Shown here one piece after another: positions 1,452-63,190 of a stretch of DNA of 64,000 nt. Under the pieces are notes generated by a model that searched no databases, had not been told where the DNA came from, and worked only from the letters and a program-made list of their open reading frames with translations. The DNA is taken from NCBI GenBank assembly GCA_016188075.1, contig JACPIO010000017.1, positions 23,406-87,405 on the forward strand, given 5' to 3'. The stretch's first letter is position 1; every line of letters begins with the position of its first letter. Origin of the DNA: Candidatus Wolfebacteria bacterium (GTDB lineage Bacteria > Patescibacteriota > Minisyncoccia > UBA6257 > UBA9933). A program made the position numbers and the translations under genes.

Positions 1452-1531
1452 CGACGGGAATAGTAAATAGTAAATAGTAATTAGTAAATAGATAAGGAAT
1501 ATAAATTACTAATTACCAATTACTAATTACC
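1452..1531. repeat. inverted pair of TAATTAC-type short repeats (family member, see findings)
   Basis: agtaaatagtaaatagtaattagtaaatag ... attactaattaccaattactaattacc. The arms are reverse complements of each other. The same motif recurs at 5301, 10141, 27831, 41611, 52119 and 63068. Confidence 0.6.
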
Positions 1532-5076: not shown

Positions 5077-5298
5077 TTAAAAAGATTGCCCGACTATATT
5101 AAAAAGCGAGAGGCCGACAAAAATCAAAGAGAGAACGACGGTGGCGAAAAAGATAACGCGCTCCAGCCCTCGGCGTTGATGATAGACCTCGCCCTCCACG
5201 CCTCCGAAAATAGAAGAGGCGCCGGAAGACCGCTCTTGAAGCAAGATCAAAGCGATCAAAAGAACGGAAACGATAATTTGAACAATAGAGATGAACAT
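5077..5298 (-). CDS. secG: preprotein translocase subunit SecG
   Basis: 73 aa, two TM helices, LLQERSSGASSIFGG...RRGLE signature. Confidence 0.8.
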   Translation of the reverse strand: MFISIVQIIVSVLLIALILLQERSSGASSIFGGVEGEVYHQRRGLERVIFFATVVLSLIFVGLSLFNIVGQSF

Positions 5299-5332
5299 AG
5301 ACGGTAATTGGTAATTAGTAATTAGAAATTTT

Positions 5333-5695
5333 TTACTTGTATACTCTTTTCACGGCAAAGTGGATTAAAAAATTCGTGAGTCCGATAATAAGCGTAGCAT
5401 AAAAAAGAGGCAAAAGTCCATTGATGGTCAAAGTGGCAGAGTAGAGGTCGAGAATGTAGAGTAATATCATATTCACCAAAATTATTCCTAGACCCAAGGT
5501 CAGAAAAATAATCGGGCCCAAAATCAGCTTGAAGACCGGACCCAGAAAGAAGTTAATAAAGGTAAAAATAGCGGCAACCTGGGTCGTTGACCAGAAGTCG
5601 GAGGGAATGCTCACGCCGGACACAAAATTGTTTACCACCCAAAAAGCGACCAGATTGGAAAAAAACGCGATAATGAACCGAGAGGCGATTTTCAT
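5333..5695 (-). CDS. membrane protein, DUF360 / phage-holin-4_2-like family
   Basis: 120 aa, 4 predicted TM helices, LGPIIFLTLGLGIILVN pattern. Confidence 0.55.
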   Translation of the reverse strand: MKIASRFIIAFFSNLVAFWVVNNFVSGVSIPSDFWSTTQVAAIFTFINFFLGPVFKLILGPIIFLTLGLGIILVNMILLYILDLYSATLTINGLLPLFYATLIIGLTNFLIHFAVKRVYK

Positions 5696-6646: not shown

Positions 6647-6694
6647 GCGGAGCTCCACGGGAAACGAAGGATCGCCTTTCTAGAAAGACGAAAC

Positions 6695-6726
6695 AAAAAT
6701 TCCCCGCCTTAGGCGGGGAATTTTTG
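6695..6726 (+). terminator. rho-independent terminator
   Basis: aaaaattccccgcc-tta-ggcggggaattttt followed by a T-run; lies 3' of the 5957..6646 gene. Confidence 0.7.
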
Positions 6727-6898
6727 TTGTTGACCCCAACACCAATAGTGGATAGGTTATCATAATAAAGAAAAATTTTGTATATATATTTATAATTTAA
6801 ACCAATTTGGCAGAAATATGGTTAGACGAGAATTTATCAATCCACTATTGGTGTGGGGTTGAAAAAACCCAATTTATATGCTAAGATGTTGAAAACCC

Positions 6899-7662: not shown

Positions 7663-7953
7663 ATGCAAGCGATAAAAAAATTCCTCGAAAAAATTCAAAA
7701 TTCCGACGAGGCGGCGAAAAAACGCTGGGTGGCGGGCGCGAGCGCCCTTGCCATGATCATGATCATTTTTTTCTGGGCTTTCACAATGAATCCGTTAGCC
7801 GATTCGACCTCTCGTCTTCGCGGAGAGGCGGGGCCGGGTTTCTGGGAAATTTTTACAAGCGGTTTAAGAGAGGTAACGGCGTCGATCAAAAATGAATTGA
7901 AAAATCTGTCTTCAACATTAATCGAAGAGCGATCAATTACCATAGAGAAATAA
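7663..7953 (+). CDS. hypothetical small membrane protein
   Basis: 96 aa, one TM helix; its stop overlaps the gyrA start. Confidence 0.4.
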
Positions 7954-10460
7954 TGATTATGGAAAATCAAAAAAATCAGCGCGTCGAAAAACGCGAAATC
8001 ACGGAAGAATTGAAAGAATCCTATTTGAACTACGCGATGTCCGTTATCGTCTCGCGCGCTCTGCCGGACGTCCGGGACGGCTTAAAGCCGGTGCAGCGCC
8101 GAATTCTCTGGACAATGTGGGACGACGGCTTAACCCACAGCGCCAAATTTCGGAAATCAGCTAACGTAGTCGGGGCGGTTTTGGGCCGTTACCACCCGCA
8201 CGGCGATGCGGCAGTTTACGACGCTCTGGCCCGCATGGCCCAAGACTTTTCGCTGCGGTATCCTTTAGTTGACGGTCAGGGTAATTGGGGCAGCGTTGAC
8301 GGGGACAATCAGGCGGCCATGCGTTACACGGAGGCAAGACTTTCCAAGATTGCCGAGGAAACGCTTTTCGATATCGAAAAGGAAACTGTTGATTGGCAGC
8401 CGAATTATGACGCCACGCGCCAGGAACCAAAAGTTTTACCGGCCAAACTTCCCAGTCTTCTTTTAAACGGCACAATGGGCATTGCCGTGGGCATGGCCAC
8501 GAACATCCCTCCACATAACTTGGGAGAAGTCATTGATGCCGCCGACCACCTAATCGTGAATCCCAAAGCAACGACCGAGGATTTGATGAATCACATCCAA
8601 GGCCCGGATTTCCCGACCGGCGGGATTATTTACAATAAAAAAGCCATTGTCGAAGCTTATATTTCCGGCCGCGGCCCCATCACCTGCCGAGCCAAATCCG
8701 AAATCGAAGAGCGCAAAGCCGGACAATTCAATATCGTAGTTACGGAAATCCCCTATCAAATCAATAAATCCGAACTTTTAATCAAAATCGCCGAGCTCGT
8801 TAACGAGAAAAAAATTGAAGGCATCCGCGACCTTCGAGATGAAAGCGACAGAGACGGAATGAGGATTGTGATTGAACTCAAGACCGACGCGGTGCCGCAG
8901 AAAATTTTAAATCAGCTTTATAAACACACAGACCTCCAAAAAGATTTTCATTTGAATATGATTGCTTTGGTTCGGGGTATCGAACCCCAACTTTTATCCT
9001 TGAAAGAAATTTTGGCCGCCTACCTCGAACACCGAAGAGTGGTGGTGGAAAAACGAACCCGGTTCGAACTTCAGAAAGCCAAAGAAAGGGCTCATATTCT
9101 CGAAGGTTTGTCCCGTGCGCTTTCGGTCATTGATAAAATCATCGCCACCATCAAAAAATCAAAAGACCGGGACGAGGCGCGGGTCAATTTGGTAAAAAAT
9201 TTCAAACTGACGGAAATCCAGGCAACGGCGATTTTGGAGATGCGGCTTCAGACTTTAGCGGCTTTGGAACGCCAGAAAATCGAGGACGAACTCGAAGAAA
9301 AAAGAAAATTGATTATCGAGCTCGAAGCCATTCTCAAAAGCCCGGAGAAAATTCAAAAAATCATAAAAAACGAACTTCAGGAATTGAAAAAAAATTACGG
9401 CGACGAACGCCGAACCCAAGTGGTCGCAGGCGGCCTTCAAGAATTCAAACAGGAAGATTTAGTACCTCAAGAAGAAACCATTATTACTTTCTCGGAAGAC
9501 GGCTACGTGAAACGACTCCCGCCCTCAAGCTTTAAAACGCAGAAACGCGGCGGCAAGGGATTAATTGGTCAGGAAATGAACGAGGAAGACCTTTTGGCGC
9601 ATTTCATTTCCGCCGATACCCACGACAATATTTTATTTTTTACCACCCGGGGCCGGGCCTTTCAGACCAAAGTCTATGAAATACCGGTCGGCAGCCGCAC
9701 TGCCAAGGGAAAACTGATTCAGAATTTTTTGGAAATCCCCGCGGAGGAAACCGTGAGCGCCATTGTTACCTACGCGGCTCACAGACTACAGACTACCGAC
9801 TACAGTAAAAATCAGAAAGCCGTAGACCGTAGTCTGTCGACGCTAGACAATTACTTAGTAATGGCGACTAAAAATGGCTTGATAAAAAAGACTTCGCTCG
9901 CGGATTTTTCTAATGTTCGTCGGAGCGGCATTCTGGCTATGAAACTTCAAAACGACGACCAGCTTAAATGGGCAAAACTTTCTTCGGGCAAAGATGAAAT
10001 CATTTTGGCAACTGGCCGCGGACAAGCCATCAGATTCAAAGAAGCCGATCTCCGGGCCATGGGCAGGACTGCCTCCGGGGTCAAAGCCATAAGGCTAAAG
10101 AGTGGTGATTTTGTCGCTGGACTTGATATAATTAAGACAAGTTCCAAATTACCAATTACCAATTACAAATTACTTATTGTGACCGAAAATGGGTTTGCCA
10201 AACAGACTTCTTTGAAAGATTACAAAATTCAGAAACGCGGGGGCGGCGGCATAAAAACCGCTAAGGTTAATCAAAAAACCGGGCGCGTGATCGCGAGTCA
10301 AATTCTCGAAAATCAGGAAGACTTACTTGCGATCTCAACCAAAGGACAATTGATTCGAACGAAAATCGCGAGTATTCGCTTAGCGGGCCGCGCCACCTCC
10401 GGAGTGCGCATTATGAAATTAAAAGAAGGAGATAAAGTTGCCGGAATAGTATGTCTTTAA
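7953..10460 (+). CDS. gyrA: DNA gyrase subunit A
   Basis: 835 aa; [25 protein letters not shown], active-site region and C-terminal beta-pinwheel repeats. Carries in-frame low-complexity insertions at 9781-9850 and 10141-10175. Confidence 0.95.
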
Positions 10461-16156: not shown

Positions 16157-16201
16157 CTCCTCCGCCAATCTTACATTAACCTTGTATTCCCCCAACTCGC
16201 T

Positions 16202-17658
16202 GCTACGTTTAAACGTAGCAGTGAGAACGTAGCAACGAGGGAGGAACGCCGACAGACGAAAAACCCAGGGGAGCAAAAACCATTAAAACTCTTTTCCTTA
16301 GGAGCCGGCTTGATGATAAATCAAACAATTCTGTCCGCTACGTTTAAACGTAGCGGCGAGGCATACATCAAAAATACAGAGAATGACCGACCGAAAGAAA
16401 TCAATCAGTTCCTCCCGTTCGTTCTCCTGCTCGAAATTAATACTCCGTAGTTAACGTTTCGCAAAATTTTAGAGTTGCGCTCGCGTCATTATCTTTCACG
16501 ACATTATCTTTTAAAACTGCCTGCTACGTTTAAACGTAGCAGGCAGGATAACCATAAAACATCCTCGCCGCAAGCGGCGAGGTATTCGGCGATTAGCGCC
16601 ATAAACAAACTTTTGAAAAGATATTCCAATCTAAAAAGATATTCCGGGCGAAAACTAAAGTTGATCAAGAAAATCCCAGCGACCCCTTCCCTTGTAGGCC
16701 GGAATTTTTCTTCTTTTGTACCGCGGTTCGCGGAATCTTAACGGAATATTTTTTAATTTCTTATCCGGGTTGATTTTTTCCCTCCTTTTTAATCCCCTTT
16801 TCACAAAACTAATGGTGTCGGGACTTACGTCAACAATTTCACCTATTTTCCGGTAAGTTAAACCGCGTTCCAAAAGCAAGAGAGTCGCCAATCTTCTTTC
16901 AAGAAGATTAATTTCGCTTCCCGAAAGAAATTTATTTAAACCGCAGAGCAAGTCTTTTTCGGAGGTTGCTCCCCTTATCTCCGTCAAGAACTTTTGCCAT
17001 GCCGCCCTCTTCAAAATCTCCCCTATGTATTTTTTATTAACATTGACCATCTTTTTATTCTTTTAACCATTACTCCGGCTCCATTCACCATTCTAACAGT
17101 CTTTTGCTAATCCTTAAATTATAAAACAAGTAATTATATATTGCTATGTTTAAACATAGCAGGTTAACTGAAAAAGAAGGGTAGAAGGGCTCCGGATTCT
17201 ATTATCTCTATATCAGCATGAGTGACGTCAGTATATCAATATAAACGATATCAGCAGAGATCATTTCGGCGCAGGACGATTCTCTTCGATCTGCTACGTT
17301 TAAACGTAGCAGACAGAGTAAGGATAATCGCAGCTTAGCCAAAAAAACCAGTCCAAATTGCAAAACTATTATTTTCTCTCCACTACGTTTAAACGTAGCG
17401 CGCAGGGTAGGAATAGACAGAAGATGGTCGAGTAACTGGCGCGAATAAACAGCGGCTCCGAATACACGACAGCCGAGAAAGCAAGAGGGGCAAATATTTT
17501 CAGAAAGCAATACTGCGAAAAATACCGCAATGCTACGTTTAAACATAGCAGCGAGACGTAAATCAACTACCTCGCGGTTAGCACTCGCAAAATTTTGAAT
17601 TTATGCTCGTAACGCTATCGTCTAACTTCTAAAATTGCACGCTACGTTTAAACGTAGC
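16202..17658. repeat. array of eight 18-bp perfect palindromes GCTACGTTTAAACGTAGC (irregular spacing)
   Basis: Cores at 16202, 16336, 16523, 17143, 17293, 17382, 17532 and 17641. Flanks extend the palindrome differently in each copy (a perfect 30-mer at 16517-16546). The copy at 17143 carries a compensatory C>T/G>A pair. Confidence 0.85.
16655..17050 (-). CDS. TrpR-like (YerC/YecD family) helix-turn-helix protein
   Basis: 131 aa; ...LTYRKIGEIVDVSPDTISFVKRGLKR matches the Trp-repressor/YerC HTH; basic C-terminal tail. Sits inside the palindrome array. Confidence 0.6.
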   Translation of the reverse strand: MVNVNKKYIGEILKRAAWQKFLTEIRGATSEKDLLCGLNKFLSGSEINLLERRLATLLLLERGLTYRKIGEIVDVSPDTISFVKRGLKRREKINPDKKLKNIPLRFREPRYKRRKIPAYKGRGRWDFLDQL

Positions 17659-18226: not shown

Positions 18227-21200
18227 TTAGCGCGAGAAGAGTTTCAAAAGCTCCGCGATTTTTGTTTGAAGCAGAGAAACATTGGCTATAAGCTCCGCGG
18301 GATTGGCGTAGAGAGTGGTTGAGGTCGAAATCGGGGTTGAGGTCGCGTACGGCGGAGTCGAAGTAACGGAATAGCCTACTGCAGGAACAACCGTTATTGT
18401 ATTACCAGCTGCTGATTGAATTCCGGCCGGAATAGAGGCGTTGGAGTTTCGTCCGTAAGCCCGGATATCGGAGGCTGAACCAATGGCAAAAATGTATTGT
18501 CCGCCCGAAGAAGCTCCGCCGGAGATAAGTGGAGCGACGTCAGCTCGCAATTCCAACTCAATAGCGCTATTTTGCGGGACAATGGCCGGGATTGAAAGAT
18601 TAAAGACGTAAACCCAAGTGTCTCTATTAGTTGAACTGGCAATGATTGGTCCAGCCACCACCGTGCCGCTATTCAATAATCTGGCATTTTGGAAAGATGG
18701 CGTTGTCGCGTTGTTGGTCGAGACTGCGGTTATGGTTAAAGCGTCAACCCTAATTGGTTCGGCGGAGTTGTTGGCAAAACGAAAGGTGGCTAAACTGTTA
18801 TTGACTGATCCCATCACCACTTGCGTGGACGACGCGGTATTTGGGCTAATGGATACTCTAAGAAAGGCTGACGTATCCGGCGTGGGCGGAGGATTGCCAG
18901 TTGCTGGCGCCCCGGCAACACGGCGGCAAACATCAAATTGAAGCATTTTCTGGATTGTTAGATTCCCGACAATGCCTGTGCCATTCGGGTTAAGTCCTCT
19001 CGCGATTAGAGCATCGCGCAGGTAATCACGTTGAAATGCTTTTACGGCATCAAAGGTTGGATTAAGAATCAAGTCGAATGAGTAATGTCTATCCTCCAGA
19101 TGCCCGATAAATTGACGGATGGATGAATCCGGGTAAGCGCTTGGATTTATATATCCCAAACTCACCAAACACTCCTGGACCTGGGCTTTTTGAGTCGTGG
19201 TTAGATTTACCGCGGAAATATCCGGGTCAAGTGGGCCGCCGAATCTTCTCAATGGCAATCCAGCACCACCACTCCCTGGCCCTCCTATACCACCCATACC
19301 ACCAGCCGTACCTCCTATACCACCTGGTCCACCTCCAGATGCAGCAGCTTCTGCAGCGGCGGCCGTTGCTGCTGCCTCTGCTTGTTCCGCTAGTCCTTGC
19401 GCTCCCGCAGAAGGACCCGCGGTATCTGACGCTCCGCCGCCAGCTTGAGAAACCGTCCCTCCTGCGCCTGTCGAAGAAATAATCGGTCCTTGATTGGCGC
19501 ACAATTGATTTAATTTTCTTTTTGTATAAGTGCCGACAATGCCCGTGCCGTTTTCTCGGCCGCCAGAAGTGTAAATTTCCGAGGAAAATTGATTTTGAAT
19601 TAGTATAACCGATGACGAGGTTTGAGGCCCAAAGGTACCCAAGCCAAGAGCTTCGCTACTAGGCAAAGTAAATTGAGCAGACGGAATCGTTGCCAAACAT
19701 TGTTGTAATCGAACAACTTGGCTTCTATTGTTGTTGGGTGAATCTCGGCGCAACTCCGTTGAATCATTGTAAAGATCAAAAAGCGGTCCCCGAACTGCCG
19801 GCAAAATCTCAAAATTCAAAAGATTAGCTGTGTCAAAAACATTACTACCGGTAATCGCGGTGTGAACTCTTAAGACAAGACTGGAGAGTTCCGAAACGTC
19901 GCGGAAGGTCAAGCGAACCGAAGTACCGCGCGTCAAATCATACTGGGTTTCCGGGTTAAAACTTTCAATCCGGGCGTTTTGAGACACATAACTCCACTTA
20001 ACCCGATCACGGCAAATCTGTCCTTCTCGGCAGAAAGGGGCGGCCCAGGTAAAAGTGGCGGATTCTCCGGCGTTAAATCTGGTTTTTCCGTCCGGCAAAA
20101 GAGAGAAATTAGAGTTGCCTAAGTTGGGAACAAGGGCTTGGGCTGTGGCCGGCGAAGTTAAGGGACCAGAAGTCGGCGCGCCAGAACCAGGAGCAACTAC
20201 TCCGGGACCGCCAGTTCGCGGTCCGACTGTTACTGAAATACTTCTTCTGCCTATTTCGCCTTGGCCAAACGCGGTAGTCGAAAAAAGCGCTCTCAAAACA
20301 ATGTTGACGGTTCTCGAAGTGCTCGTGCTGTTAGTGATTAAAACTTGAGCCGGGAACAAAGTTTCGTGGAAATTATAAGGACCGTTACCTTGTCTTCCGC
20401 AGTATTCTCGGCCGGCATAACCAACGGTCACTGCGTTATCGTCATTTCCTTCACAGCCAAGAGTAATAATGGGAGAAAAACCAAGACCCGGCCGCTTGGA
20501 CGCATTCAGAGCTACCGTGGTTCCGGAATTAATTGTTATAGATGTAACTGGAGTCGGATTGCTTGCGGAGATGGCGGTAAAAGATGAAATAACCGGGCCA
20601 GAGTCAGCAACGCCCGAGTCAGGAGACGGCGCCGAAAGAGTTTGAACCACCCTAAAGATACCCGCGTTAGTGCTTGGGGCAGACCGCGCTCCGGGAATGG
20701 CAACTGGCCTCCCGCCTAACCAGTAGTAACCGTCGGGCACAATATAATACTGATCCGGCATAATCACCCCCAACGTATTTGAGCTTGCCGCTGGAGTGGG
20801 ATTAAGAGGATTACCGATAAAATACGGGTTATCGCCGTTATAATTTACAGCAATAGTGTCGCCGACTTGGGCCCCGGATCCGATATTAGCCTTGATAGTT
20901 AAAAGTCTGTAGCTGCCGCGAGGAATTCTAACCGGAGTTGTTAATTCAATAAAAGTGGCATTAAGAAATGCAGATGCTGAGAAATTTGCGCTGCCGACAT
21001 TGACTGCGCCGTTCCACAAGGTGAGTCCGTTTATAGCCCGCGGGTTGGTGCCACCGAATTTCAATCCAATCCGCCGGAGATCAATGTCATAGCTATCTGA
21101 AGCGAGACGCAAAATTGTTGTTGTAGTATTTTGGGAGTTGGCAAGAACTTCCAAGTTGCCACCGCGCGGCGAGGTATCGTCGAGAGTTATCGTAAAGGCG

Positions 21201-23047
21201 CCGGTCGTTGGAGCAGGAGTCTGGGTAGGCGAAGGAGTGGCGCCCACCGCAGAGCTTGACCCTACGGCAATGGACACGCTTTTTTGGTCGCTCAATACAT
21301 TGCTTGAGGGATTGGTATTGCTATAAACGCTGTAAGTTTTCAGAATCAGAGTAATTGTTTTTTGAGTATTGGCGCTGTTCGTTAAACGAACCAAAGCCGG
21401 AAAAGTGCTAATAATAACTCCATAAGGCCCGTTTATAACATGATTGTCCGCCGGATGATGACCGCAATAAACTTGGTTATTAGAAACCAAGACTAACGAA
21501 ACATCGCCGCTATCATTGCCCTGGCATTCAAGAGTAGCGGCGGCAACGTTTGCTTCGGAATTTAAACGGGCAGTTAAAGTATTAGATCCGCCGGAATTTA
21601 CATACGGAGAAAAGGCGCTGAAGCTTGAAAGGGCCGGCGCAGGCGTTGGAGTTGGAGTTGGTGTTGGTGTTGGTGTTGGTGTTGGTGTTGTGGCTGGCGC
21701 GCTAACCGTTATTGTGAACGGGCTAGTTTGAGCCGAACAATTGCTTTCGTCAGACGAAGCACAAGCCCAGCCGTAGAGATAATAATTGCCCGTCGCAAGG
21801 GTTGGTGAGATATTCAGGATATAAGGATTAGCTGCGCCGACGGAGGTCCGTGGAAAAGATGATACGCCATCATATCTCAAGCTAAAGTGATTGACCGTAC
21901 CACTTACGCCAAGAAAGCTAACCTGGATAGAGGTAGCGCCCTGGGTGACGGCGGAGGGGGCTGAAACCGAAGAAAGAGTTGGCGCCGGAGTCGGGGTTGA
22001 CGAGACCGGCGCGCTCACAGTCGCGGTTGTGGTTTTGTATGGAGAAGGGGTGCCGTCGTTTTTGAAAGCAGCTCCTTGGAGTTCATAAGCTCCGGCGGTA
22101 GTGGGTGTAAAAGAAATTCCGGTACAGAATCCGGTTACGGCAGTAGCAGGATTCCATACGGACGTTCCCTGAACTCTATACTGGAACCCGCAGAAATCAT
22201 TACTGGCGTACCCACTAAAGTTTACGGTCATCTGATTTCCAAGCGTCACCGAGTTCGCCGAGATACTGGTGAGGGTTGGAGTGGTTGGCGTCGGAGTGGG
22301 AGCCGGAGAAACCGTAACAGTAACCACGCTATTGCTGGATCTGCTGTTATCAGCGCCCAGGGCATAAAGAGTAAAAGTGACCAATCCGGGAGATATGCTG
22401 CTATTATTTACGGTAACGACATTACTGGAATTACTAACAACGTTGGCAGGAACATTAGGGGTAAATCCCGGAATAGAAATACTGGGGTTATCCGAAGAAA
22501 AAGAAAGCCAGCCGCTTACGGCATTTTGAGCCGAAGTGTTTAAGGTTACGTTCGATCCAGATGGAACCGTGGTTCCGTTCTGAGGCGAAGAAAGAGAGGC
22601 GGTTACCGGCGGAGCAGCGATGGTAAACGTGTCCGTGGTCGCACCAATTGGCATTGATTGGCCGTCTTTGGATCCATTCCAGTATACGTTAACGGTGTGA
22701 GTGCCGACATTATTGAAAGTGCAGGTGGCGCTATAAGATCCGCCGCAGTTATTAAGATAGGTTCCGTCGAGATTCACGGTCATTATGCCAGCAATCCCCC
22801 AATTGGAAGGCGGCTGACTCGGATAAGTTCCGGTTGAATCACTGCGATAAACCGAAGCATTGAGCGTGGCGGTACTTCCCGAGACGGTAACGGCTGTAAA
22901 GTTGCAAAAACCAAAAGTTGACAAAGTGTAGCCCGGCACCGCGGCGCATTTAGTATCGGCCTGGGCTTCTTTTGTCAAAATCCCCCCGAAAACTCCGAGG
23001 AAAACGACCGCTAATAATATAATGAAAAAATACTTAAAATTTTTCAT
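18227..23047 (-). CDS. giant secreted/cell-surface protein (1606 aa) with PG-binding-like domain
   Basis: Signal peptide MKNFKYFFIILLAVVFLGV; many Thr/Pro linkers (TPTPTPTPTPTPTPTPAP), Ser/Thr/Asn-rich beta-rich segments, a Gly-rich stretch. Near the C-terminus is a PG_binding_1-like segment (TQKAQVQECLVSLGYI...FDAVKAFQRDYL...GTGIVGNLT). Confidence 0.7.
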   Translation of the reverse strand: MKNFKYFFIILLAVVFLGVFGGILTKEAQADTKCAAVPGYTLSTFGFCNFTAVTVSGSTATLNASVYRSDSTGTYPSQPPSNWGIAGIMTVNLDGTYLNNCGGSYSATCTFNNVGTHTVNVYWNGSKDGQSMPIGATTDTFTIAAPPVTASLSSPQNGTTVPSGSNVTLNTSAQNAVSGWLSFSSDNPSISIPGFTPNVPANVVSNSSNVVTVNNSSISPGLVTFTLYALGADNSRSSNSVVTVTVSPAPTPTPTTPTLTSISANSVTLGNQMTVNFSGYASNDFCGFQYRVQGTSVWNPATAVTGFCTGISFTPTTAGAYELQGAAFKNDGTPSPYKTTTATVSAPVSSTPTPAPTLSSVSAPSAVTQGATSIQVSFLGVSGTVNHFSLRYDGVSSFPRTSVGAANPYILNISPTLATGNYYLYGWACASSDESNCSAQTSPFTITVSAPATTPTPTPTPTPTPTPTPAPALSSFSAFSPYVNSGGSNTLTARLNSEANVAAATLECQGNDSGDVSLVLVSNNQVYCGHHPADNHVINGPYGVIISTFPALVRLTNSANTQKTITLILKTYSVYSNTNPSSNVLSDQKSVSIAVGSSSAVGATPSPTQTPAPTTGAFTITLDDTSPRGGNLEVLANSQNTTTTILRLASDSYDIDLRRIGLKFGGTNPRAINGLTLWNGAVNVGSANFSASAFLNATFIELTTPVRIPRGSYRLLTIKANIGSGAQVGDTIAVNYNGDNPYFIGNPLNPTPAASSNTLGVIMPDQYYIVPDGYYWLGGRPVAIPGARSAPSTNAGIFRVVQTLSAPSPDSGVADSGPVISSFTAISASNPTPVTSITINSGTTVALNASKRPGLGFSPIITLGCEGNDDNAVTVGYAGREYCGRQGNGPYNFHETLFPAQVLITNSTSTSRTVNIVLRALFSTTAFGQGEIGRRSISVTVGPRTGGPGVVAPGSGAPTSGPLTSPATAQALVPNLGNSNFSLLPDGKTRFNAGESATFTWAAPFCREGQICRDRVKWSYVSQNARIESFNPETQYDLTRGTSVRLTFRDVSELSSLVLRVHTAITGSNVFDTANLLNFEILPAVRGPLFDLYNDSTELRRDSPNNNRSQVVRLQQCLATIPSAQFTLPSSEALGLGTFGPQTSSSVILIQNQFSSEIYTSGGRENGTGIVGTYTKRKLNQLCANQGPIISSTGAGGTVSQAGGGASDTAGPSAGAQGLAEQAEAAATAAAAEAAASGGGPGGIGGTAGGMGGIGGPGSGGAGLPLRRFGGPLDPDISAVNLTTTQKAQVQECLVSLGYINPSAYPDSSIRQFIGHLEDRHYSFDLILNPTFDAVKAFQRDYLRDALIARGLNPNGTGIVGNLTIQKMLQFDVCRRVAGAPATGNPPPTPDTSAFLRVSISPNTASSTQVVMGSVNNSLATFRFANNSAEPIRVDALTITAVSTNNATTPSFQNARLLNSGTVVAGPIIASSTNRDTWVYVFNLSIPAIVPQNSAIELELRADVAPLISGGASSGGQYIFAIGSASDIRAYGRNSNASIPAGIQSAAGNTITVVPAVGYSVTSTPPYATSTPISTSTTLYANPAELIANVSLLQTKIAELLKLFSR

Positions 23048-26892: not shown

Positions 26893-27031
26893 GGATTTTG
26901 CCACGAGGCAAAATCGCAGCTTGGCCGCCCCGATTTTAATCGGGGCGAGCCTCGCCTGCGACTGGATTTATCCATGAAGCATAGTCGCAGGCGGGCCGCC
27001 CACTATAACGGGCGAGCCTCGCCTGCGGGCT
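26893..27031. repeat. GC-rich palindromic repeat units (…ccgccccgattttaatcggggcgagcctcgcc…)
   Basis: Units at 26893-26950 and 26975-27031 in the rel-topA intergenic region/topA tail; related to 18128-18165; a further partial unit at 27084-27110. Confidence 0.55.
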
Positions 27032-29102
27032 CATCGCTTTTTCTCTCTTTTGCATTAGAATTTTCGGTTACTTGAGGATTGACCCACGAGGCATAATCGC
27101 AGGCGGGATATTTTGAACAGCCGTAGAAAAAACGGCCGCGCTTGGTGCGTTTGCGAACCACTTCACCCTCTGCGCATTTCGGACATTTCATTTTAACGCC
27201 GTTCTCGTCCATCACCACATTTTTTATCGGCTTGGCGTTTTTGCAATCCGGAAAACCCGAGCAAGCCATGAATTTTCCGAAACGGCCGTATTTTATAATC
27301 ATCGGCTTGCCGCATTTTTCGCAATCCTCATCGGTCTTTTCTTCTATGGGTTTTTGCTTTTCCACTTCAAGATATTTTTTTTCCAAATTAACCGAAAACG
27401 GCTCATAAAATTTCCGGATGACATTTTGCCATTTTTCGGCGCCGATCGCGATTTCGTCCAATTCTTCTTCCATCCGGGCCGTAAACTGGATATCGACAAT
27501 TGTCGGGAAATGCTCGGTCAATATTTTATTTACGGCGCAGCCGATTTCGGTTGGCGCGAAACGCCGGTCTTCATTTTTAAGAACGTAATTTCTTTCCTGA
27601 ATCACCGAGATGGTCGGCGCGTAGGTGGAGGGCCGGCCGATGCCGTATTCTTCGAGCGTTTTAATAAGACTGGCTTCGTTGTAGCGCGGAGGCGGTTCGG
27701 TAAAATGCTGAGATGGCAAAACCTCAAGCAGTTTCAATTCTTCTTTTTCCGCGAGCGCCGGCAGTTCTTTTTCCTCGAATTGCGTGGGCCAAATTTTCAA
27801 AAACCCGTCAAATTTTAGAATACTGCCGGTGGTAATTAGTAAATAGTAATTAGCAATTAACGAGTTTTTGGCTTCTATCTCCACCCTTGTGGAGTCAAAA
27901 ATTGCTTGGGGCAGCTGCGAGGCGATAAAACGTCTCCAAATCAATTCGTAAAGTCTTTTTTCTTGATTATTTTCTCCCTGAAATTTTTCCGGAGCAAAGT
28001 CCGGCCGCGTGGGCCGAATAGCCTCATGCGCTTCTTGCGCCAAACGCGACTTTGTTTTAAAAAAGCGCGGGGCTTGACTCGCGTATTCTTTTCCCAATTT
28101 TTTTTCAATCCAGCTTTTAGCGGCCAGAACGGATTCGCGGGAAAGATTCACCGAGTCTGTCCGCATATAAGTGATTAAGCCGTTTTCGTAAAGACTCTGG
28201 GCGAACCGCATTGTTTGCTTAGCCGAACAGCGGAGGCGGCGAGACGCTTCCTGCTGAAGAGTCGATGTGGTAAAAGGCGGTAAGGGATTTCTTTTTAACT
28301 CTTTCTTTTCAATTTTGGAAACTCTAAAATCGCATTGCTTCAAATCAATGGCTATTTTATCCGCCTCCTCTTTTGTTTTAATTCCCAGCTTCGGAACAAC
28401 TTCGCCGTTTATTTTATGAAGCAGCGCAGTAAATTTATTTTCCGCGCCTGCCCCGAGTTTTACCGAGGGGTCGTTCCGCGCTGACTTCCGCGTTATTCCG
28501 CGCGATTGAAGCAGAGCTTCAATCGACCAGTATTCCTCCGGTTTGAAATTTTCAATCTCTTCTTCTCTTTCCGCAATCAAACGAAGCGCCACTGACTGCA
28601 CTCGGCCGGCCGAAAGCCGTCTCATCACCTTTTCCCACAAAAATGGCGAGAGTTTGTATCCCACCAAACGATCCAAAACGCGGCGCGCCTGTTGGGCGTC
28701 CACCAAACTCATATTAACTCCGCGAGGATTTTTTAAAGCTTCCTCAATGGCGGACTTGGTAATTTCGTGAAAAACGATTCTTTGGACCTTTGCCGTCCCC
28801 TCCTCATTTAATCCGAGCGCCTGGATTAAGTGATAGGCAATGGCTTCTCCTTCTCTGTCTTCGTCCGTTGCCATGATGACGGCATCGGCTTTTTCCGCTT
28901 CTTTTTTCAGCTGATTGACGCGCTTTTTGGACCTAATCGGAATGATATAGTGGGGTTCGAAATTTTTCTCAACATCAATTCCGATCTTGCTTTTCGGTAG
29001 ATCGCGAATATGACCCATGGTCGCAAGAACTTCATATTCTTTCCCAAGAAACCCTTTTAAGGTTTTTGATTTAGTTGGACTTTCCACTAAAATTAGTTTC
29101 AT
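27003..29102 (-). CDS. topA: DNA topoisomerase I
   Basis: 699 aa; TOPRIM N-terminus (MKLILVESPTKSKTLKGFLG...GHIRDLP) and C-terminal C4 zinc ribbons. In-frame insertion IANYYLLIT encoded by the TAATTAC repeat at 27831-27864. The 3' end runs into the GC-rich repeat, so the exact stop is uncertain. Confidence 0.9.
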   Translation of the reverse strand: MKLILVESPTKSKTLKGFLGKEYEVLATMGHIRDLPKSKIGIDVEKNFEPHYIIPIRSKKRVNQLKKEAEKADAVIMATDEDREGEAIAYHLIQALGLNEEGTAKVQRIVFHEITKSAIEEALKNPRGVNMSLVDAQQARRVLDRLVGYKLSPFLWEKVMRRLSAGRVQSVALRLIAEREEEIENFKPEEYWSIEALLQSRGITRKSARNDPSVKLGAGAENKFTALLHKINGEVVPKLGIKTKEEADKIAIDLKQCDFRVSKIEKKELKRNPLPPFTTSTLQQEASRRLRCSAKQTMRFAQSLYENGLITYMRTDSVNLSRESVLAAKSWIEKKLGKEYASQAPRFFKTKSRLAQEAHEAIRPTRPDFAPEKFQGENNQEKRLYELIWRRFIASQLPQAIFDSTRVEIEAKNSLIANYYLLITTGSILKFDGFLKIWPTQFEEKELPALAEKEELKLLEVLPSQHFTEPPPRYNEASLIKTLEEYGIGRPSTYAPTISVIQERNYVLKNEDRRFAPTEIGCAVNKILTEHFPTIVDIQFTARMEEELDEIAIGAEKWQNVIRKFYEPFSVNLEKKYLEVEKQKPIEEKTDEDCEKCGKPMIIKYGRFGKFMACSGFPDCKNAKPIKNVVMDENGVKMKCPKCAEGEVVRKRTKRGRFFYGCSKYPACDYASWVNPQVTENSNAKERKSDEPAGEARPL

Positions 29103-30230: not shown

Positions 30231-30329
30231 CTTTACATTTTAGTATATTTTGCGGGAAATTCAACGATAACGAGATTCATAAAACATAAAACATTTGCGC
30301 TTCATGCTTTATGCTTCATGATTTGTGAA

Positions 30330-31214
30330 TCATATCGTATATCCTCTTTCCGACTCCTTTATAAAATTATTGATTACCAGCATCGCGACTGTTTGACTTA
30401 CGACTTGCGGTTCCAGTTTAGTGAGCTCAATAATTTTGTCAATTCGAACCGGCTCCCCCGCCCCTTCAATAACTCTTAAAACCATTAATTGTTTCTCGTC
30501 TTTAATTTTTTGTGATTTCGTATTTTCGTATATTCGTACCTTTTCGTATTTCGTAGCCAGATTGAGGTCTTCCATTATATCTTCCGCCGAAGCAACCAAT
30601 CTCGCCCCGTCCCTGATTAAAGCGTGCGATCCCTTATAGTTGGGGTGCTCGACCGGTCCGGGAAAAACAAAAACTTCGCGACCCTGTTCAGCCGCGAGCC
30701 GCGCCGTAACCAAAGCGCCAGACTCCCTGGGAGCTTCGATTATAATGGCGGCCAAAGAAAGACCGCTTACGATTCTATTTCGTTCAAGAAATCGGTGCGG
30801 CAGGACCGGCGTCCCCGGAGAATATTCCGAGATAATCGCTCCGCCGGCTTGGAGAATCTGATTGGCTAAATTTTCATTCTGCTCAGGATAAATAGAATCG
30901 AGGCCGTTTCCAAGAACGGCAATGGTCGGCGATCCGCCGCGCAAACTGCCTTGGTGAGCCGCGGTGTCAATACCCATCGCCAAACCGCTTACGACAACGA
31001 GTCCCCGGCGCGACAAATCTTCGGCTAATCGTTTGGCCATATTTTTTCCGGCTTCGGTGGCTTTTCTCGTTCCCACAATGGCAACGCGCGGAATGTCGTA
31101 AGCGGGCAATTTCCCCAAAAAATAGAGCCCAGACGGCGCGCCTCGTATTTCCGAAAGCAAGGCCGGATAGCGGCTATCGCCCCTCTCTAAAAAATTTATT
31201 TCCGCTTTTGACAT
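30330..31214 (-). CDS. dprA: DNA processing protein DprA (Smf)
   Basis: 294 aa; ...VAIVGTRKATEAGKNMAKRLAEDLSRRGLVVVSGLAMGIDTAAHQGSL... Carries an in-frame (ttcgta)n insertion at 30521-30570. Confidence 0.85.
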   Translation of the reverse strand: MSKAEINFLERGDSRYPALLSEIRGAPSGLYFLGKLPAYDIPRVAIVGTRKATEAGKNMAKRLAEDLSRRGLVVVSGLAMGIDTAAHQGSLRGGSPTIAVLGNGLDSIYPEQNENLANQILQAGGAIISEYSPGTPVLPHRFLERNRIVSGLSLAAIIIEAPRESGALVTARLAAEQGREVFVFPGPVEHPNYKGSHALIRDGARLVASAEDIMEDLNLATKYEKVRIYENTKSQKIKDEKQLMVLRVIEGAGEPVRIDKIIELTKLEPQVVSQTVAMLVINNFIKESERGYTI

Positions 31215-40824: not shown

Positions 40825-40932
40825 TTTAGCTTTTTAGCATATCGATACCAATATACAAATGTACGAATTATACTAATCACAAGCCATCGATTCATTCGTA
40901 TCATTAGTAAATTCGTATATTCGCATCGATAC

Positions 40933-41106
40933 TTACAAATACCTCTTTACTATCTTTTTTCCGATTACTTCCAATGTTCTTAATCCTTTTTTTCTTTTAA
41001 CCTGCTGCGTTCTTTTCTTAGCTAAAAAATGGCCTTGAGCCATGGCCCGCCTCAAAATTTTTCCGGTTCTGGTCACCTTGAAACGATCCGAGATAAATTT
41101 ACGCAT
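40933..41106 (-). CDS. rpmI: 50S ribosomal protein L35
   Basis: 57 aa, MRKFISDRFKVTRTGKILRRAMAQGHFLAKKRTQQVKRKK...; absent from the ORF track (below its size cut-off); completes the conserved infC-rpmI-rplT order. Confidence 0.8.
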   Translation of the reverse strand: MRKFISDRFKVTRTGKILRRAMAQGHFLAKKRTQQVKRKKGLRTLEVIGKKIVKRYL

Positions 41107-41597: not shown

Positions 41598-41641
41598 ATG
41601 CGGTAATTAATACTCTTTTCCCTAACTACTAATTACTAATT

Positions 41642-41990
41642 TGGTGGAGATGAGGGTATTGAAACCCTGTCCAAAAATTAACTTTAAAAATTTCTACAGG
41701 TTTAGTCCCGATGAATGAAGGATTAAGGAATGAAATCGGGACGAAAAATCCTTAATTCTTTGCCGATTTTTGTCCCCGCCAAAATTGGCAATTTAGGCGG
41801 GCTAGTCTAATTTATTACACCCGAACCTCTTGATTCAGACACCCAAGAGCGGATGCCGCTTAGGCAAAAGCGAAAGCGGGAGCTAATCTGTTATTGGCAG
41901 ATATAGTTTTGATTCGATGATTTTCAAGGTGACGAATCATCCTTGACCTGCGATTTTTAAAGATCATTTCTGTCGAGGCCTTGCATCCCC
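41642..41990 (-). ncRNA. ssrA: tmRNA (SsrA)
   Basis: 5' GGGGATGCAAGGCCTCGACAG... and 3' ...GGACAGGGTTTCAATACCCTCATCTCCACCA. G3-U70 wobble in the acceptor (Ala identity), T-arm-like hairpin. Candidate tag ORF GCC AAT AAC AGA TTA GCT CCC GCT TTC GCT TTT GCC TAA (ANNRLAPAFAFA*). Adjacent to smpB. Confidence 0.75.
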
Positions 41991-49913: not shown

Positions 49914-50003
49914 GGAGGCGTAATACCAATCTACGAATGCGCACGAATGATACGAATAGCTGCGAATTGATTCGTGACATTCGTATTAATTCGTAGATTC
50001 GTA

Positions 50004-52118: not shown

Positions 52119-53945
52119 TTAATTATTACTAATTACTTTTTTTGCCTCTTCCCAAATAAGCGGATCGTTGTGCTTTTCTTTCAAAAGATACCACCATTCG
52201 GCGCCCCAGAGATAGTAATCTTCAAAACCAGTCTGTTTGGCATATTCTATTGTATCCCGAAAATAATCCGGACTAAAGAGGGCAATTTGTTCCTCGTAAG
52301 TTAATTCCGGAATTTCCTTCGCGCCCCACGGCTCGGCCTGAAGCTCAATCACAATAAACTTCTTTTCGTCATCGCGAGTAAGCCATCGAACCGCTCTTTC
52401 TTTTAACGGAAAATATTTTGGATCGATATGGTAATCAATTGGTCCAAGAATCGGACCGATAAAGCGCGGGTAAGCTTTCCGGTACATTGTTGTTCCAAAA
52501 ACATCGCCGGCGGCCGCCGCCTTGTGCCACAATCCAAACTCGCCGCCGTCGGTTATAAGCACCGGCCGCGATCCATCGAGATTTTTTACTATTTTAACTT
52601 CTTCTTCCAAAAATTTTTCGCCGCGGGAAGGACACTTGCCAAACATTAAAAAGGGTTCGTTTTCCACTTGCCACATTTCTATTGCCGAATCGTTCTTGTA
52701 TTTATTAACAAGTATTTCTATGTAATCCCGCAGAGCGATTTCCCGATCTCCGGTTTTTAAATTTTTTGCCCATTCCGGGATATGACATTCCGGCCAGCGC
52801 GGCGCCTTCATGCCTAAAGTTAAAATAATCTTAATTCCTTTTCCCCGGGCTTGATTAAGCTGCCAATCTAAATCGGAAAAATCATAGCTGGTTCTGTTTT
52901 TTTCAATTTTATCCCAATAAGCGACCAATCGAATTTTTTTCGGCCTTAAGTCGTCGACGATGGCCGTAAAATTTTCCCGCCAATTCAAATTCAGCTGTTC
53001 GGAAAATTTTTGAGAAAAAGTAACGCCCCATCTTAAGGGTCGGTTGGGATCAATGGCAATGCCCCGACCGTATTCCACGGAACCGAGCATTATCAATCCC
53101 GCGGCAATAAAAATAAGAGCGACAATCTTGCCCAAAAGCGCCCGGCCTCGAAATCGCTCGCGGAGCAATAACCAGCCGGCGAAAAAAACCACAATGTATT
53201 TAAAACTTTGCGTGGCGTCAACCAGGGCCGGCTGGCTTAGAAACAAAGCGTAGGAAAAAAGCAAAGAACCTAATCCGGCGTAGGCGCGGTTCATAAAATA
53301 AAGAGAATTATTGGAGATTTCGGCTTTTCCGGTTTCGGCAAAAAATCTCTTTCGCAAACGAGGAATCAAAAGAAGAATTAACACAAAGGCGATGGCGCCA
53401 AGCTTCAACCAAATAAAACCATTGATAAAGGCCGTGTTCTCAAAAACAATCTTGGCTAAAACCAAATAAAAGCCAAGGCCAAGAGCGCTGCCGACCGCGT
53501 AGATTAAAAGCGATAAGCGCTTAACCTTCCGCTCGGCAAAAAAAAGAATCAAAGTGGCAATACCCAAAAAGACAAACCCGATTATCTGCCCTAAATCCAA
53601 GGAATATTCCAAGAATATCGAACTAAGCACCAAAGTAAAAATGGGAGATAACCCGCCGATGAACGGTATGGTTTCCGACGCCTCGGTCACGACTAATCCC
53701 GAATAAAGAAGAAAAATCGAAAGCATTAAAGCCGCCCCGGCCGCAAAACAGAGCAAAATTATTTTTAAAGGCAAAAGAGCAAAGCCAAAAGGGACAAGAA
53801 CCAAGGCAAACCCGCCCACGAGCCCGAGCCAGAAAGTATAAACCCAGGGATCAAAAAACTTTCGCCTTAAAAGAATTCTGTCAAAAACCGAAGAAGTGCC
53901 GGCGATAAACTGCGAACCAACGGCAAAGGTAAGCCAGTCAAACAT
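52119..53945 (-). CDS. fusion protein: polytopic membrane domain + glycoside hydrolase (GH5-like) domain
   Basis: 608 aa; N-terminal ~290 aa with about 10 TM helices; C-terminal domain has the WQVENEP acid/base motif and a later ELQAEPW motif typical of clan GH-A. Last codons (KKVISNN*) are encoded by a TAATTAC-type repeat. Confidence 0.5.
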   Translation of the reverse strand: MFDWLTFAVGSQFIAGTSSVFDRILLRRKFFDPWVYTFWLGLVGGFALVLVPFGFALLPLKIILLCFAAGAALMLSIFLLYSGLVVTEASETIPFIGGLSPIFTLVLSSIFLEYSLDLGQIIGFVFLGIATLILFFAERKVKRLSLLIYAVGSALGLGFYLVLAKIVFENTAFINGFIWLKLGAIAFVLILLLIPRLRKRFFAETGKAEISNNSLYFMNRAYAGLGSLLFSYALFLSQPALVDATQSFKYIVVFFAGWLLLRERFRGRALLGKIVALIFIAAGLIMLGSVEYGRGIAIDPNRPLRWGVTFSQKFSEQLNLNWRENFTAIVDDLRPKKIRLVAYWDKIEKNRTSYDFSDLDWQLNQARGKGIKIILTLGMKAPRWPECHIPEWAKNLKTGDREIALRDYIEILVNKYKNDSAIEMWQVENEPFLMFGKCPSRGEKFLEEEVKIVKNLDGSRPVLITDGGEFGLWHKAAAAGDVFGTTMYRKAYPRFIGPILGPIDYHIDPKYFPLKERAVRWLTRDDEKKFIVIELQAEPWGAKEIPELTYEEQIALFSPDYFRDTIEYAKQTGFEDYYLWGAEWWYLLKEKHNDPLIWEEAKKVISNN

Positions 53946-62324: not shown

Positions 62325-63190
62325 ATGATTATTGACGGGAAAGCGATAGCGGAAAAAATTATCGCCGATTTAAAAAAACAACCAATTCCCAAAAAGATTC
62401 TGGCGGCGGTTTTGGTGGGCGAAAATGCGGCTTCGGTTTCATTTTTAAAACAAAAAGAAAAAATTGCCAAGGAATTAGGGGTAGATTTTAGAATTTATAA
62501 ACTTAGCGAAGGCCTGAAAAGCGACGGTCTGCGAAAGGAAGTTGGAAGAATCGCGAGGCAAAGTAGGGTGGGCGGGATTATCGTCCAATTACCTCTGCCT
62601 CAAGGCATAAACCGGCGATATGTTTTAAACGCCATTCCCTTGGAAAAAGACGTTGATGTTTTGAGCGAAAAAGCGCAGGAAGCGTTTCGGCTGGGAAAAA
62701 GCAAAATTTTGCCGCCGAAGCGTTTCGGCTGGGAAAAAGCAAAATTTTGCCGCCGGCAGTTGGCGTCGTTGAAGAAATTATTCATGCTTCAGGCTTCACG
62801 CTTCATGATTCACGAGTTGCCGTCGTGGGCCTTGGCTTTTTAGTTGGAAAGCCGATTTCCGAATGGCTTAGGGACAAAACCAAAGAATTGTATTTATTAG
62901 ATAAAGGCGATGATTTTTCTGTTTTGAAAAACGCTGACTTAGTGATTACTGGTGTTGGCCAAGCCGGAATTATAAAGCCCGAGATGTTAAAAGACGGCGC
63001 CGGCGTAGTTGATTTCGGGTACTCCATTGATACGGCCGGCAAAATCCACGGCGACTTCGACACTCAATTACCAGTTACTAATTACCAATTACTGCGTTTT
63101 TATACAAAAACTCCGGGCGGCACCGGCCCGATACTGGTCGCGAAACTTTTTGAGAATTTTTATAGTTTGTGCTTACATCAAAAATCTTAA
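62325..63190 (+). pseudogene. folD: methylenetetrahydrofolate dehydrogenase/cyclohydrolase FolD, frameshifted by a 38-bp tandem duplication
   Basis: Two track ORFs (62325..62843, 62747..63190) are both FolD-like. The unit gaagcgtttcggctgggaaaaagcaaaattttgccgcc is duplicated head-to-tail at 62669-62706 and 62707-62744. Removing one copy restores ...GKSKILPPAVGVVEEII.... Confidence 0.7.

Follow-up and report, generated by a model that had tools for sequence, protein, structure and literature searches.

Short AATTACY repeats lie between genes and, in frame, within gyrA, topA and folD of a 64-kb stretch of DNA (hereafter the window, meaning the whole stretch that was analysed). These runs are tandem arrays of a 7-nt unit. 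We consider it probable that they are similar in kind to the short tandemly repeated repetitive (STRR) sequences and heptanucleotide simple sequence repeats (SSRs) of other bacteria, and that they arose through out-of-register copying whose products selection then filtered. They belong to a wider class of repeats: Tandem Repeats Finder, which supplied the array lists for the window, found 27 period-7 arrays in 64 kb, compared with 1.7 in the dinucleotide shuffles from which the chance expectation was taken. The AATTACY unit, present in approximately four copies per array (arrays of ~20–33 nt), accounts for ~7 of these 27. A preliminary description of the window had proposed a discrete element of ~30 nt that, like the Rickettsia palindromic elements (RPEs), inserts into genes in frame and is translated. 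The element resolved instead into a 7-nt unit in ~4 copies, and ~20 period-7 arrays with other units had been missed. The RPE-like reading was partly supported in behaviour and unsupported in kind or mechanism.

Heptanucleotide arrays in the window and its relatives

GyrA and TopA of the window matched with 100% identity proteins annotated as Candidatus Wolfebacteria bacterium on an 87.5-kb contig, and the next-closest relatives reached at most 78% identity. On protein similarity, these searches identify the window as part of a Candidatus Wolfebacteria metagenome-assembled genome (MAG). The comparison set comprised 80 gyrA loci from species-representative genomes, in which the close relatives were loci L001–L031 plus the window and the distant Paceibacteria were Harrison-, Lipton- and Colwellbacteria and others. 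Strain material consisted of read-based contigs from one study (SRR121133xx and SRR121134xx runs) and three strains from ENA.

AATTAC[C/T] heptamer runs were found at every coordinate of the preliminary description, with the peptides that it gave. The sequence CCAATTACCAATTAC, with up to two mismatches, had 11 matches in the window versus 0.14 in shuffles, and AATTACNAATTAC, with up to one mismatch, had 20 versus 0.75 expected. As a singleton, the hexamer AATTAC is not common (rank 273 of 4096); therefore, the recurrence of the arrays is not an effect of composition. The site-1 array of gyrA (gene 7953–10460; Pfam DNA_topoisoIV and six DNA_gyraseA_C repeats) lies in the C-terminal beta-pinwheel domain, and its final unit, CAAATTA-C, overlaps conserved native Lys-Leu-Leu codons (...AAA TTA C..). 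An intergenic inverted pair had been placed at 1452–1531; it was confirmed, with arms at 1459–1491 and 1504–1531 that are complementary over 25 nt at 88%. The repeat was also said to form the last codons of gene 52119..53945, and indeed the antisense reading of the array at 52119–52136 (GTAATTA) gives this gene its end (...KVISNN*) and its TAA stop.

Period-14 arrays were likewise in excess (8 versus 0.17 in shuffles), whereas, period 10 apart (14 versus 2.9), any excess at other periods was slight. The units of the window fall into AATTACY (~7 sites), GCTTCAN (3 sites) and ~15 further units, on both strands; examples are ATTTCGG, TTTCTAA, TTAGTCG, AGGATTT, GTTTTTG, GTTGTTA and ACAGACT. The GCTTCAN family is common to PolX (37331), folD (62781) and an intergenic site (30299–30320), and an 18-nt stretch is shared among the three sites. 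Most arrays of the window lie in genes, namely gyrA (2), topA, folD (2), PolX, ppsA (3), a glycerate-kinase-like gene, ileS (4), a xerC/D-like gene, glyA and pilin-like genes, and most are imperfect, with a unit identity of 75–95% (Table 1). An Rfam scan of the 64-kb window returned tRNAs and transfer-messenger RNA (tmRNA) and nothing else.

Table 1. Positions, strands and units of the heptanucleotide arrays described in the window
Feature	Position	Strand	Units and encoded peptide
gyrA, site 1	10146-10173	+	CCAAATTACCAATTACCAATTACAAATTAC; (C/A)AATTAC x ~3.9, 95% unit identity; encodes KLPITNYKL, beta-pinwheel blade loop
topA (gene 27003-29102)	27832-27859	-	AATTRCT/ATTTACT x 4.0; LIANYYLLITTG; encodes LIANYYLLIT
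folD, AATTACY array (C-terminal open reading frame 62747-63190)	63065-63092	+	AATTACC/AGTTACT x 4.0; LPVTNYQLL(RF)
Intergenic, left arm of inverted pair	1459-1491	-	AATAGTA x 4.7 on plus strand; minus strand reads ATTTACT/AATTACT
Intergenic, right arm of same pair	1504-1531	+	AATTACY x 3.9; 3' of RNase Y gene
Intergenic	5304-5330	-	AATTWCY x 3.9; occupies most of the 34-nt gap that separates secG (5077-5298) from holin-like gene (5333-5695)
Adjoining tmRNA 3' end	41622-41641	+	AAYTACT, short, 2.9 units; tmRNA 41642-41990 on minus strand
Last codons of gene 52119-53945	52119-52136	+	TATTACT-AATTAC, ~2.5 units, antisense
gyrA, site 2	9781-9847	+	ACAGACT x 3.6 (9781-9805) and inverted partner GTAGACC/GTAGTCT (~9821-9847); 24-aa loop
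folD, first array	62781-62814	+	GCTTCAN x 4.9; encodes IHASGFTLHDSR in true frame
PolX (gene 36048-37862)	37331-37359	+	GCTTCAN x 4.1; encodes KLHASGFKFHV
ppsA, C-terminal reading frame, two adjacent arrays	48228-48292	-	sense units TTCCAAT x 4.4 and TTCTAAA x 4.6; ~9 units
ppsA, N-terminal reading frame	48698-48729	-	sense CCGAAAT x 4.6; encodes NPQSAIRNPK
Glycerate-kinase-like gene (DUF4147/MOFRL)	50968-51004	-	TTTGAAA x 5.3; encodes NPQFEIRNLKLEILK
ileS (56140-59763), four arrays	56516-59105	-	56516-56555 TTAGAAA x 5.7; 57029-57061 CGACTAA x 4.7; 58251-58278 AAATCCT x 4.0; 59074-59105 CAAAAAC x 4.6
XerC/D-like integrase gene	60270-60300	-	TAACAAC x 4.4; encodes NSQRTTNNKQP

Period 7 was also predominant in related and metagenome loci. 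At the gyrA loci, the density of period-7 arrays per 10 kb was 1.9 in close relatives, 3.6 in the window alone and 0.57 in distant Paceibacteria. In the close set, there were 10.1 arrays per 10 kb of non-coding DNA versus 1.1 per 10 kb of coding DNA (~9-fold); roughly half of the arrays are still within genes because ~92% of the DNA is coding. The copy number had a mode of 4–4.5 units (28–32 nt) in coding and intergenic arrays alike, unlike the copy numbers of periods 6, 8, 9 and 10, which fall monotonically. The units are 76% A+T, and AAAT and AATT occur in 55% and 37% of them, respectively, ~3–4 times the expectation. Many intergenic arrays immediately follow a stop codon or precede a start codon, and in many species an array stands directly 3' of the gyrA stop.

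Reading frame, strand and encoded peptides

The preliminary description had taken the similar peptides in three unrelated enzymes, read in the same frame, as evidence for an inserted element. This similarity is uninformative. As 7 equals 1 modulo 3, each unit shifts the frame by one base, so that the cyclic heptapeptide encoded by a heptamer array is identical in all frames; those of (AATTACC)n read NYQLPIT, ITNYQLP and LPITNYQ. The reverse strand, GGTAATT, has a stop in every frame, and because of these TAA stops an array can be maintained within a gene only if AATTACC is on the sense strand. The likeness of the GyrA, TopA and FolD peptides (ITNY[Q/K/Y]L[P/L]) thus follows from a frame-blind unit with only one stop-free strand. 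Pure AATTACT contains TAA even in sense, which accounts for the mixture of C, A and T variants in coding copies.

In a metagenome scan, at least 120 contigs (33–64% G+C) contained (AATTACC)3-4. Within long open reading frames (ORFs) of this metagenome-wide sample, (AATTACC)n was in the sense orientation in 31 of 31 cases, encoding LPITNYQ. Assigning a taxonomy to these contigs by tblastn with the window proteins gave no information, as shared genes were too few. More generally, the sense strand was free of stops in 42 of 61 coding arrays, and 57 of 61 intergenic arrays had a stop on at least one strand. TAACTGA repeats behave comparably, with stops in one orientation and the repeating heptapeptide LSVISYQ in the other (MacGregor 2015, PMC4679880). 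Frame-blind and strand-selective heptamers explain look-alike peptides (ITNYQLP) in unrelated proteins across metagenomes, which calls for caution in the annotation of protein families and domains; a simpler rule replaces the mobile-element account. We also considered AATTACC as a universally favoured unit and rejected it: viral contigs had 3 matches, compared with 10 for AGTCAAA and 23 for TTGGTCA, and GCTTCAT had 0.

Arrays at orthologous protein sites

The GyrA loop at site 1 was hypervariable among wolfebacterial orthologs, and many of its forms were periodic over 7 aa (NPKSQIPNPK, DSRFKIHDSR, SGIRNQESGIR, DKRQATSDK and SKFKVQNSK). The units in the DNA of this loop were CCAATTA x4 in the window, AGTCAAA x4 in L015, AGATTCA in L080, CCAGCAA in L003 and AGAGACA in L001. 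Short-form orthologs without the array (KKEGKLLV, KAGGKLLI) were exactly 7 aa (21 nt) shorter than the long forms. The final unit runs into conserved native Lys/Arg-Leu codons in the window as well as in L080, L001 and L005, which suggests local seeding and not import. In the AlphaFold model of GyrA (mean predicted local distance difference test score (pLDDT) of 70.5; C-terminal domain mostly 80–90), residues 731–739 link strands 721–727 and 739–744, and the pLDDT of the block was 68 compared with 84 and 91 in the flanks. A placement of the array in a surface or variable loop is supported by this model. The loop at gyrA site 2 (residues 611–631) had a pLDDT below 50 and is partly common to orthologs P0013 and P0010.

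Two other kinds of insert were noted in related GyrA proteins. Several (P0030, P0039, P0062, P0082, P0091, P0113 and others) carry inteins (PF14890/PF14528). In addition, some related loci (the gyrA loop of L010; 3' of gyrA in L024) hold GC-rich palindromes, such as CTGCCTTGCCGGCAGGCAGGC, which encodes LPCRQAG, in frame inside a heptamer array; these inserts are closer to the behaviour of RPEs or repetitive extragenic palindromic (REP) sequences than the reported arrays are.

The TopA array spans a beta-hairpin that includes the native strand YxLxxxG, with a net gain of 6 aa relative to solved TopA structures (PDB). Elsewhere, the same site reads SLITNYYLLITNG (AATTACT unit in the DNA of L086), KLQTTNYKLQTTG (perfect CAAACTA x 5.1 in L089), PLNSKFYILNSNG or SLLKTHYSLLVNG, and short forms such as AAGNYLLIANG also occur. 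When the TopA array of the window was compared at synonymous sites with that of a species at 73% protein identity, 7 of 9 synonymous codons were identical versus a background of 47%, which was not significant (P = 0.065); conservation of the array at the DNA level was therefore dropped.

Both FolD arrays are in variable segments and match the length of orthologs without repeats, as IIHASGFTLHDSR aligns with ILKAKNLKLKDSR and DTQLPVTNYQLLRF with DTQSLTTNNEPLDF; thus, they are not net insertions. The first FolD segment held six different units of equal length in six species (GCTTCAN, AAATTGN, GGATTNC, TAAATTC, AAAACCT and GAAACTT). Between L012 and L014, the closest pair (72% FolD identity), a C/T difference recurred at one and the same position of four successive units. 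Judged from these alignments, such unit-wide parallel substitution is a signature of concerted evolution or renewal.

It had been stated that the repeats lie in frame in essential genes without breaking the ORFs, and this was borne out, but folD (62325–63190) is split by a separate lesion. It is not a single ORF: a perfect 38-bp tandem duplication at 62679–62754 (GAAGCGTTTCGGCTGGGAAAAAGCAAAATTTTGCCGCC x2) shifts the frame, and deletion of one 38-bp copy gives an intact FolD of 276 aa. A read-based contig of SRR12113422 breaks off at precisely 62717, the point at which the duplicated path of folD parts from the downstream one; the duplication, or an allele mixture, therefore appears to be present in the reads and not to be a MAG artefact.

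Length changes at other sites were varied. Relative to Neisseria PpsA, the ATTTCGG array of ppsA (48698–48729) adds exactly 7 aa and the adjacent arrays (48228–48292, 9 units) add ~21–23 aa. The XerC-like array adds 7 aa relative to 10 orthologs, and another species has an array of a different unit at that site. In a serine hydroxymethyltransferase (SHMT)-sized gene, one site had a pair of arrays with different units. A net insertion of always 21 nt was rejected, given that FolD shows no length change and TopA a gain of 6 aa against PDB homologues. The alignment of GyrA, TopA and FolD with orthologs thus upheld the proposal of lineage-specific peptides in variable loops, and the proposed insertion held only sometimes, the FolD arrays being length-neutral. 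Across related genomes, simple insertion states were not what we found: orthologous sites held arrays of different units or an equal length without a repeat.

The ppsA-like gene, the most repeat-dense gene of the window, is itself split into two ORFs (47387–49913) that overlap at 48564–48595 with a frame shift. Approximately 40–50 residues, including the phosphohistidine (catalytic His) segment, are absent between ...DTKNIHQ and LGIPCVVGTENAT. The split ppsA is probably a pseudogene or a mis-assembly.

Secondary structure and paired arrays

The single arrays in gyrA, topA and folD folded no better than shuffled sequences (z = 0.06, 0.36 and 0.48, respectively; up to 0.66 when the array at 5304 was included), and single arrays are therefore not palindromic. 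The single arrays of the window had no common ends, flanks or target-site duplications and shared no sequence beyond the unit. Features of miniature inverted-repeat transposable elements or REP sequences (terminal inverted repeats, target duplication, or a REP consensus with a transposase, the last looked for in the window only) were not seen flanking single arrays.

Paired arrays were structured. The pair at 1459–1531 forms a hairpin of -19.9 kcal/mol (z = -3.7), a TACGAAT-type pair (unit period ~8) in the gap between ppsA and the glycerate-kinase-like gene (49921–50006) one of -35 kcal/mol (z = -6.1), and the pair at gyrA site 2 (9781–9847) an RNA fold of -20.4 kcal/mol (z = -1.7). An inverted partner within 80 nt was present for 10 of 38 intergenic arrays, versus 1–4 in controls, and for 3 of 49 coding arrays; many inverted array pairs lie just 3' of gyrA in other species. 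The inverted pair in gyrA, which had not been listed previously, resembles an RPE, and inverted-pair hairpins are the sole RPE- or REP-like aspect of the arrays. We infer that the hairpins of intergenic paired arrays may act like terminators or REP-type structures. Arrays of the TACGAAT-type unit also occur at 30515–30555 and ~40905–40935 of the window and at 5930–6010 of L086.

Stability between strains

In read-based contigs from four runs that were 99.9–100% identical to the window, no length change was found at the arrays at 5304, 41622, 60270 and 60918; this strain comparison took in no contig over the AATTACY arrays of gyrA, topA and folD, and look-ups of three other window proteins found nothing. 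The array at 5304–5330 was unchanged in strain-level contigs from three other samples, and that at 41622–41641 was likewise identical in two read-based contigs that are independent of each other. In another Wolfebacteria species, three strains (98.7–99.5% identical over 16.7 kb) carry about a dozen arrays, all identical in shared regions, perfect ones included. The only indels among these three strains were a 119-bp block and an 80-nt hairpin element. The latter, a TACGAAT-type hairpin 5' of dprA, is present or absent among strains that are ~99% identical and thus shows the behaviour of a small indel element. As no array indel was found among strains, the arrays are not hypermutable contingency loci, and array turnover is visible only between species.

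Origin of the arrays

According to the explanation that we favour, arrays would arise and re-homogenise through out-of-register copying with a 7-nt offset, which could proceed by replication or repair slippage or by a short template switch that returns to register. In coding DNA, the arrays that survive selection would be those in a stop-free orientation, with a net length change of either zero or three units (21 nt, 7 aa) and placed in surface loops that tolerate them. We observed the filter, as well as how the arrays are distributed, how diverse their units are and that parallel changes run through whole arrays; the copying mechanism is what we infer. The translated peptides are most likely passengers without a function of their own.

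Several points weigh against this explanation. Classical slippage predicts copy-number polymorphism, and none was seen among strains 98.7–100% identical. A one-unit slip in an essential gene is a frameshift, so that the birth of an array would need either a one-step change of three units or a length-neutral overwrite. The peak at ~4 units is also intergenic, and therefore the reading frame cannot be its cause. AATTACY recurs in ~7 of 27 arrays and GCTTCAN in 3, for which purely local seeding is insufficient. Finally, selection for direct repeats could instead explain why periodicity persists at the same protein sites in different species.

A tentative explanation, to which we give much less credence, is a specific copying process of this lineage in a 7-nt register, in which, for example, a repair or replicative polymerase re-primes 7 nt off and then returns. 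Such copying would write or renew heptamer periodicity and overwrite weakly constrained DNA without a change in length. It would explain why different units occupy the same loops (GyrA, TopA, FolD, XerC-like and the SHMT-sized gene), the unit-wide substitutions, the size of ~4 units even between genes and the absence of polymorphism of one unit more or less. As the G-rich heptamers of Xanthomonas and Nostoc share the four-unit mode, the four-unit rule would reflect shared enzymology and not selection for G-quadruplexes.

The main rival to copying and filtering holds that the arrays are functional cis-elements, and we regard it as doubtful. Repeats of ~4 units would be selected as sites for proteins that bind single-stranded nucleic acid (e.g., one cold-shock domain per heptamer) or as leader or terminator signals, and coding copies would be used likewise or tolerated. 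The mode of ~4 units in genes and spacers, the periodicity kept at the same sites while the sequence changes, the many intergenic arrays at stop or start codons, the hairpins formed by a quarter of intergenic arrays and the lack of variation between strains are all consistent with it, and regulatory roles have been proposed for other heptamer repeats (PMC4679880, PMC4692102). However, the high diversity of units makes a sequence-specific partner unlikely, the sites in FolD, GyrA and IleRS have no obvious regulatory logic, some orthologs are free of arrays (the short forms of GyrA), and the synonymous-site test in TopA was not significant (P = 0.065).

A selfish mobile element like the RPEs, a discrete ~30-nt unit that would multiply within the genome and enter genes in frame, is very unlikely. 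AATTACY at ~7 intergenic and coding sites, GCTTCAN at 3 sites with a shared 18-nt stretch, the 80-nt TACGAAT-type hairpin that is present or absent among ~99% identical strains and the in-frame inverted pair within gyrA would fit such an element. Nevertheless, the reported arrays are non-palindromic (z ~0) and have no common ends, flanks or target duplications, and the units of most arrays are unrelated. At orthologous sites, the units differ between species, which a single family of inserting elements would not predict, and unit-wide parallel substitutions occur; several arrays brought no change in length, and the last GyrA unit is fused to native Lys-Leu codons.

Contingency loci, i.e., hypermutable arrays that switch genes by frameshift (phase variation), are hardly credible: although heptanucleotide SSRs drive phase variation in some pathogens and both folD and ppsA are frameshifted in the window, the arrays lie in essential housekeeping genes, always in frame and mostly imperfect, no copy-number difference was seen in any strain comparison of two species, and the lesions in folD and ppsA are a 38-bp duplication and a deletion, neither of which is a heptamer slip.

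Comparison with known repeats

Mazel and colleagues reportedly described the STRR heptanucleotides of cyanobacteria in 1990. The arrays resemble cyanobacterial STRR sequences and other long bacterial SSRs in the 7-nt unit, the few tandem copies, the dispersed loci, the several families, the use of both orientations and the intergenic enrichment. They differ from STRR sequences in that they occur in a reduced genome of the candidate phyla radiation (CPR)/Patescibacteria, have far more diverse AT-rich units, lie to about half in genes, including essential ones, and have lineage-specific units in orthologous loops. Rotation of GGTAATT gives TTGGTAA, which is one base from the STRR2 unit TTGGTCA; in several of the metagenome contigs with (AATTACC)n, arrays of the TTGGTCA, CCCCAAT and TAACTGA types are present as well.

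RPEs are palindromic elements of ~100–150 bp with a family consensus. As with RPEs, the repeats of the window are both intergenic and in frame in conserved genes, and they are translated and surface-exposed while function is kept; in-frame presence at the surface without disruption of the ORF was found in GyrA, TopA, FolD, PpsA, IleRS, the XerC-like protein and PolX. The preliminary comparison with RPEs thus holds for behaviour, that is, for translated repeats in loops. It fails for kind and mechanism, as the arrays are non-palindromic tandem heptamers of 27–33 nt with many unrelated units and have neither shared ends nor target duplications.

Units of the repeats within genes of Borgs are multiples of 3 nt and essentially perfect. 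Unlike Borg repeats, the arrays have a 7-nt unit, for which only quanta of three units are frame-neutral, are imperfect and are stable between strains. As far as the account in PMC9879509 of Borg tandem repeats, which give rise to disordered protein regions, goes, the arrays are similar in being pervasive between and within genes, in encoding low-complexity peptides and in their fast independent evolution.

In many bacteria, heptamers are the most abundant class of long SSR, for which a proposed explanation is slippage by a polymerase with a 7-nt footprint (Mrazek et al. 2007, in the summary given by PMC4679880). The GGGAATC/GGGGAYT repeats of Xanthomonas and Nostoc are mostly intergenic and prefer four units, which was attributed to the formation of G-quadruplexes (Rehm et al. 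2015, PMC4692102). Our arrays share with them the preference for four units, the mostly intergenic position near the ends of ORFs and the under-representation in coding DNA. However, those repeats are G-rich, whereas the arrays here are AT-rich and without G-quadruplex potential, yet have the same mode of ~4 units; this AT-rich mode makes the G-quadruplex explanation testable. The TAACTGA repeats of marine Beggiatoaceae, cyanobacteria and Bacteroidetes (PMC4679880) are likewise direct heptamers in 2–6 copies, often just 5' of start codons and with the same strand logic. In contrast to the arrays here, which have many units and frequent in-frame coding copies, they consist of one dominant and almost entirely intergenic unit.

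Our literature searches found no report of heptamer arrays in CPR/Patescibacteria. What appears to be new is the lineage, together with the variety of units, the large proportion of in-frame coding copies within essential genes and the occupancy of orthologous sites with turnover of units. A reduced CPR genome thus tolerates, and keeps renewing, non-triplet repeats in essential enzymes, where they are natural markers of permissive loops. The arrays also provide a clean system for the study of concerted evolution of micro-arrays under frame constraint.

Other genes and repeats of the window

The gene at 36048–37862 encodes a PolX-family polymerase with pol beta-like helix-hairpin-helix, palm and thumb regions and a polymerase and histidinol phosphatase (PHP) domain; a PolX gene is also found near topA in the related loci L086–L088. 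PolX could be considered as a candidate for the out-of-register copying. The isoleucyl-tRNA synthetase (ileS, 56140–59763; 1207 aa) has a match to His_Phos_1 at residues 529–691, in the middle of the class-I core. A histidine-phosphatase domain within the IleRS core is an unusual domain insertion.

In-frame coding repeats of period 10–11 with a CGCGGAA/ACGCAGA core occur at 28474–28507, 47770–47830, 49075–49138 and 58798–58843 and encode peptides such as GTTRKLTRNYAEKSQRESA. In ppsA, these repeats add ~15 and ~36 aa relative to Neisseria PpsA, and GyrA orthologs from other species contain similar inserts of the INADQNADKR...NLRESA type. An ORF of 1606 aa without a Pfam match (18227–23047) includes, at 21645–21690, a near-perfect hexamer array (GTTGGT x 7.7).

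A near-perfect palindrome with the core GCTACGTTTAAACGTAGC is present in three copies (16196–16225, 16517–16546 and 17290–17313), in or beside small ORFs; these palindromes may represent a family of operators or of REP-like sequences, or else belong to small genes that are repeated. Finally, two hairpins are perfect, one at 1837–1874 with 19-nt arms (AATTAAATAGTCCCGACCG/CGGTCGGGACTATTTAATT) and one at 6692–6728 with 18-nt arms (AACAAAAATTCCCCGCCT/AGGCGGGGAATTTTTGTT). In contrast to the hairpins of heptamer arrays, these two look like conventional terminators.

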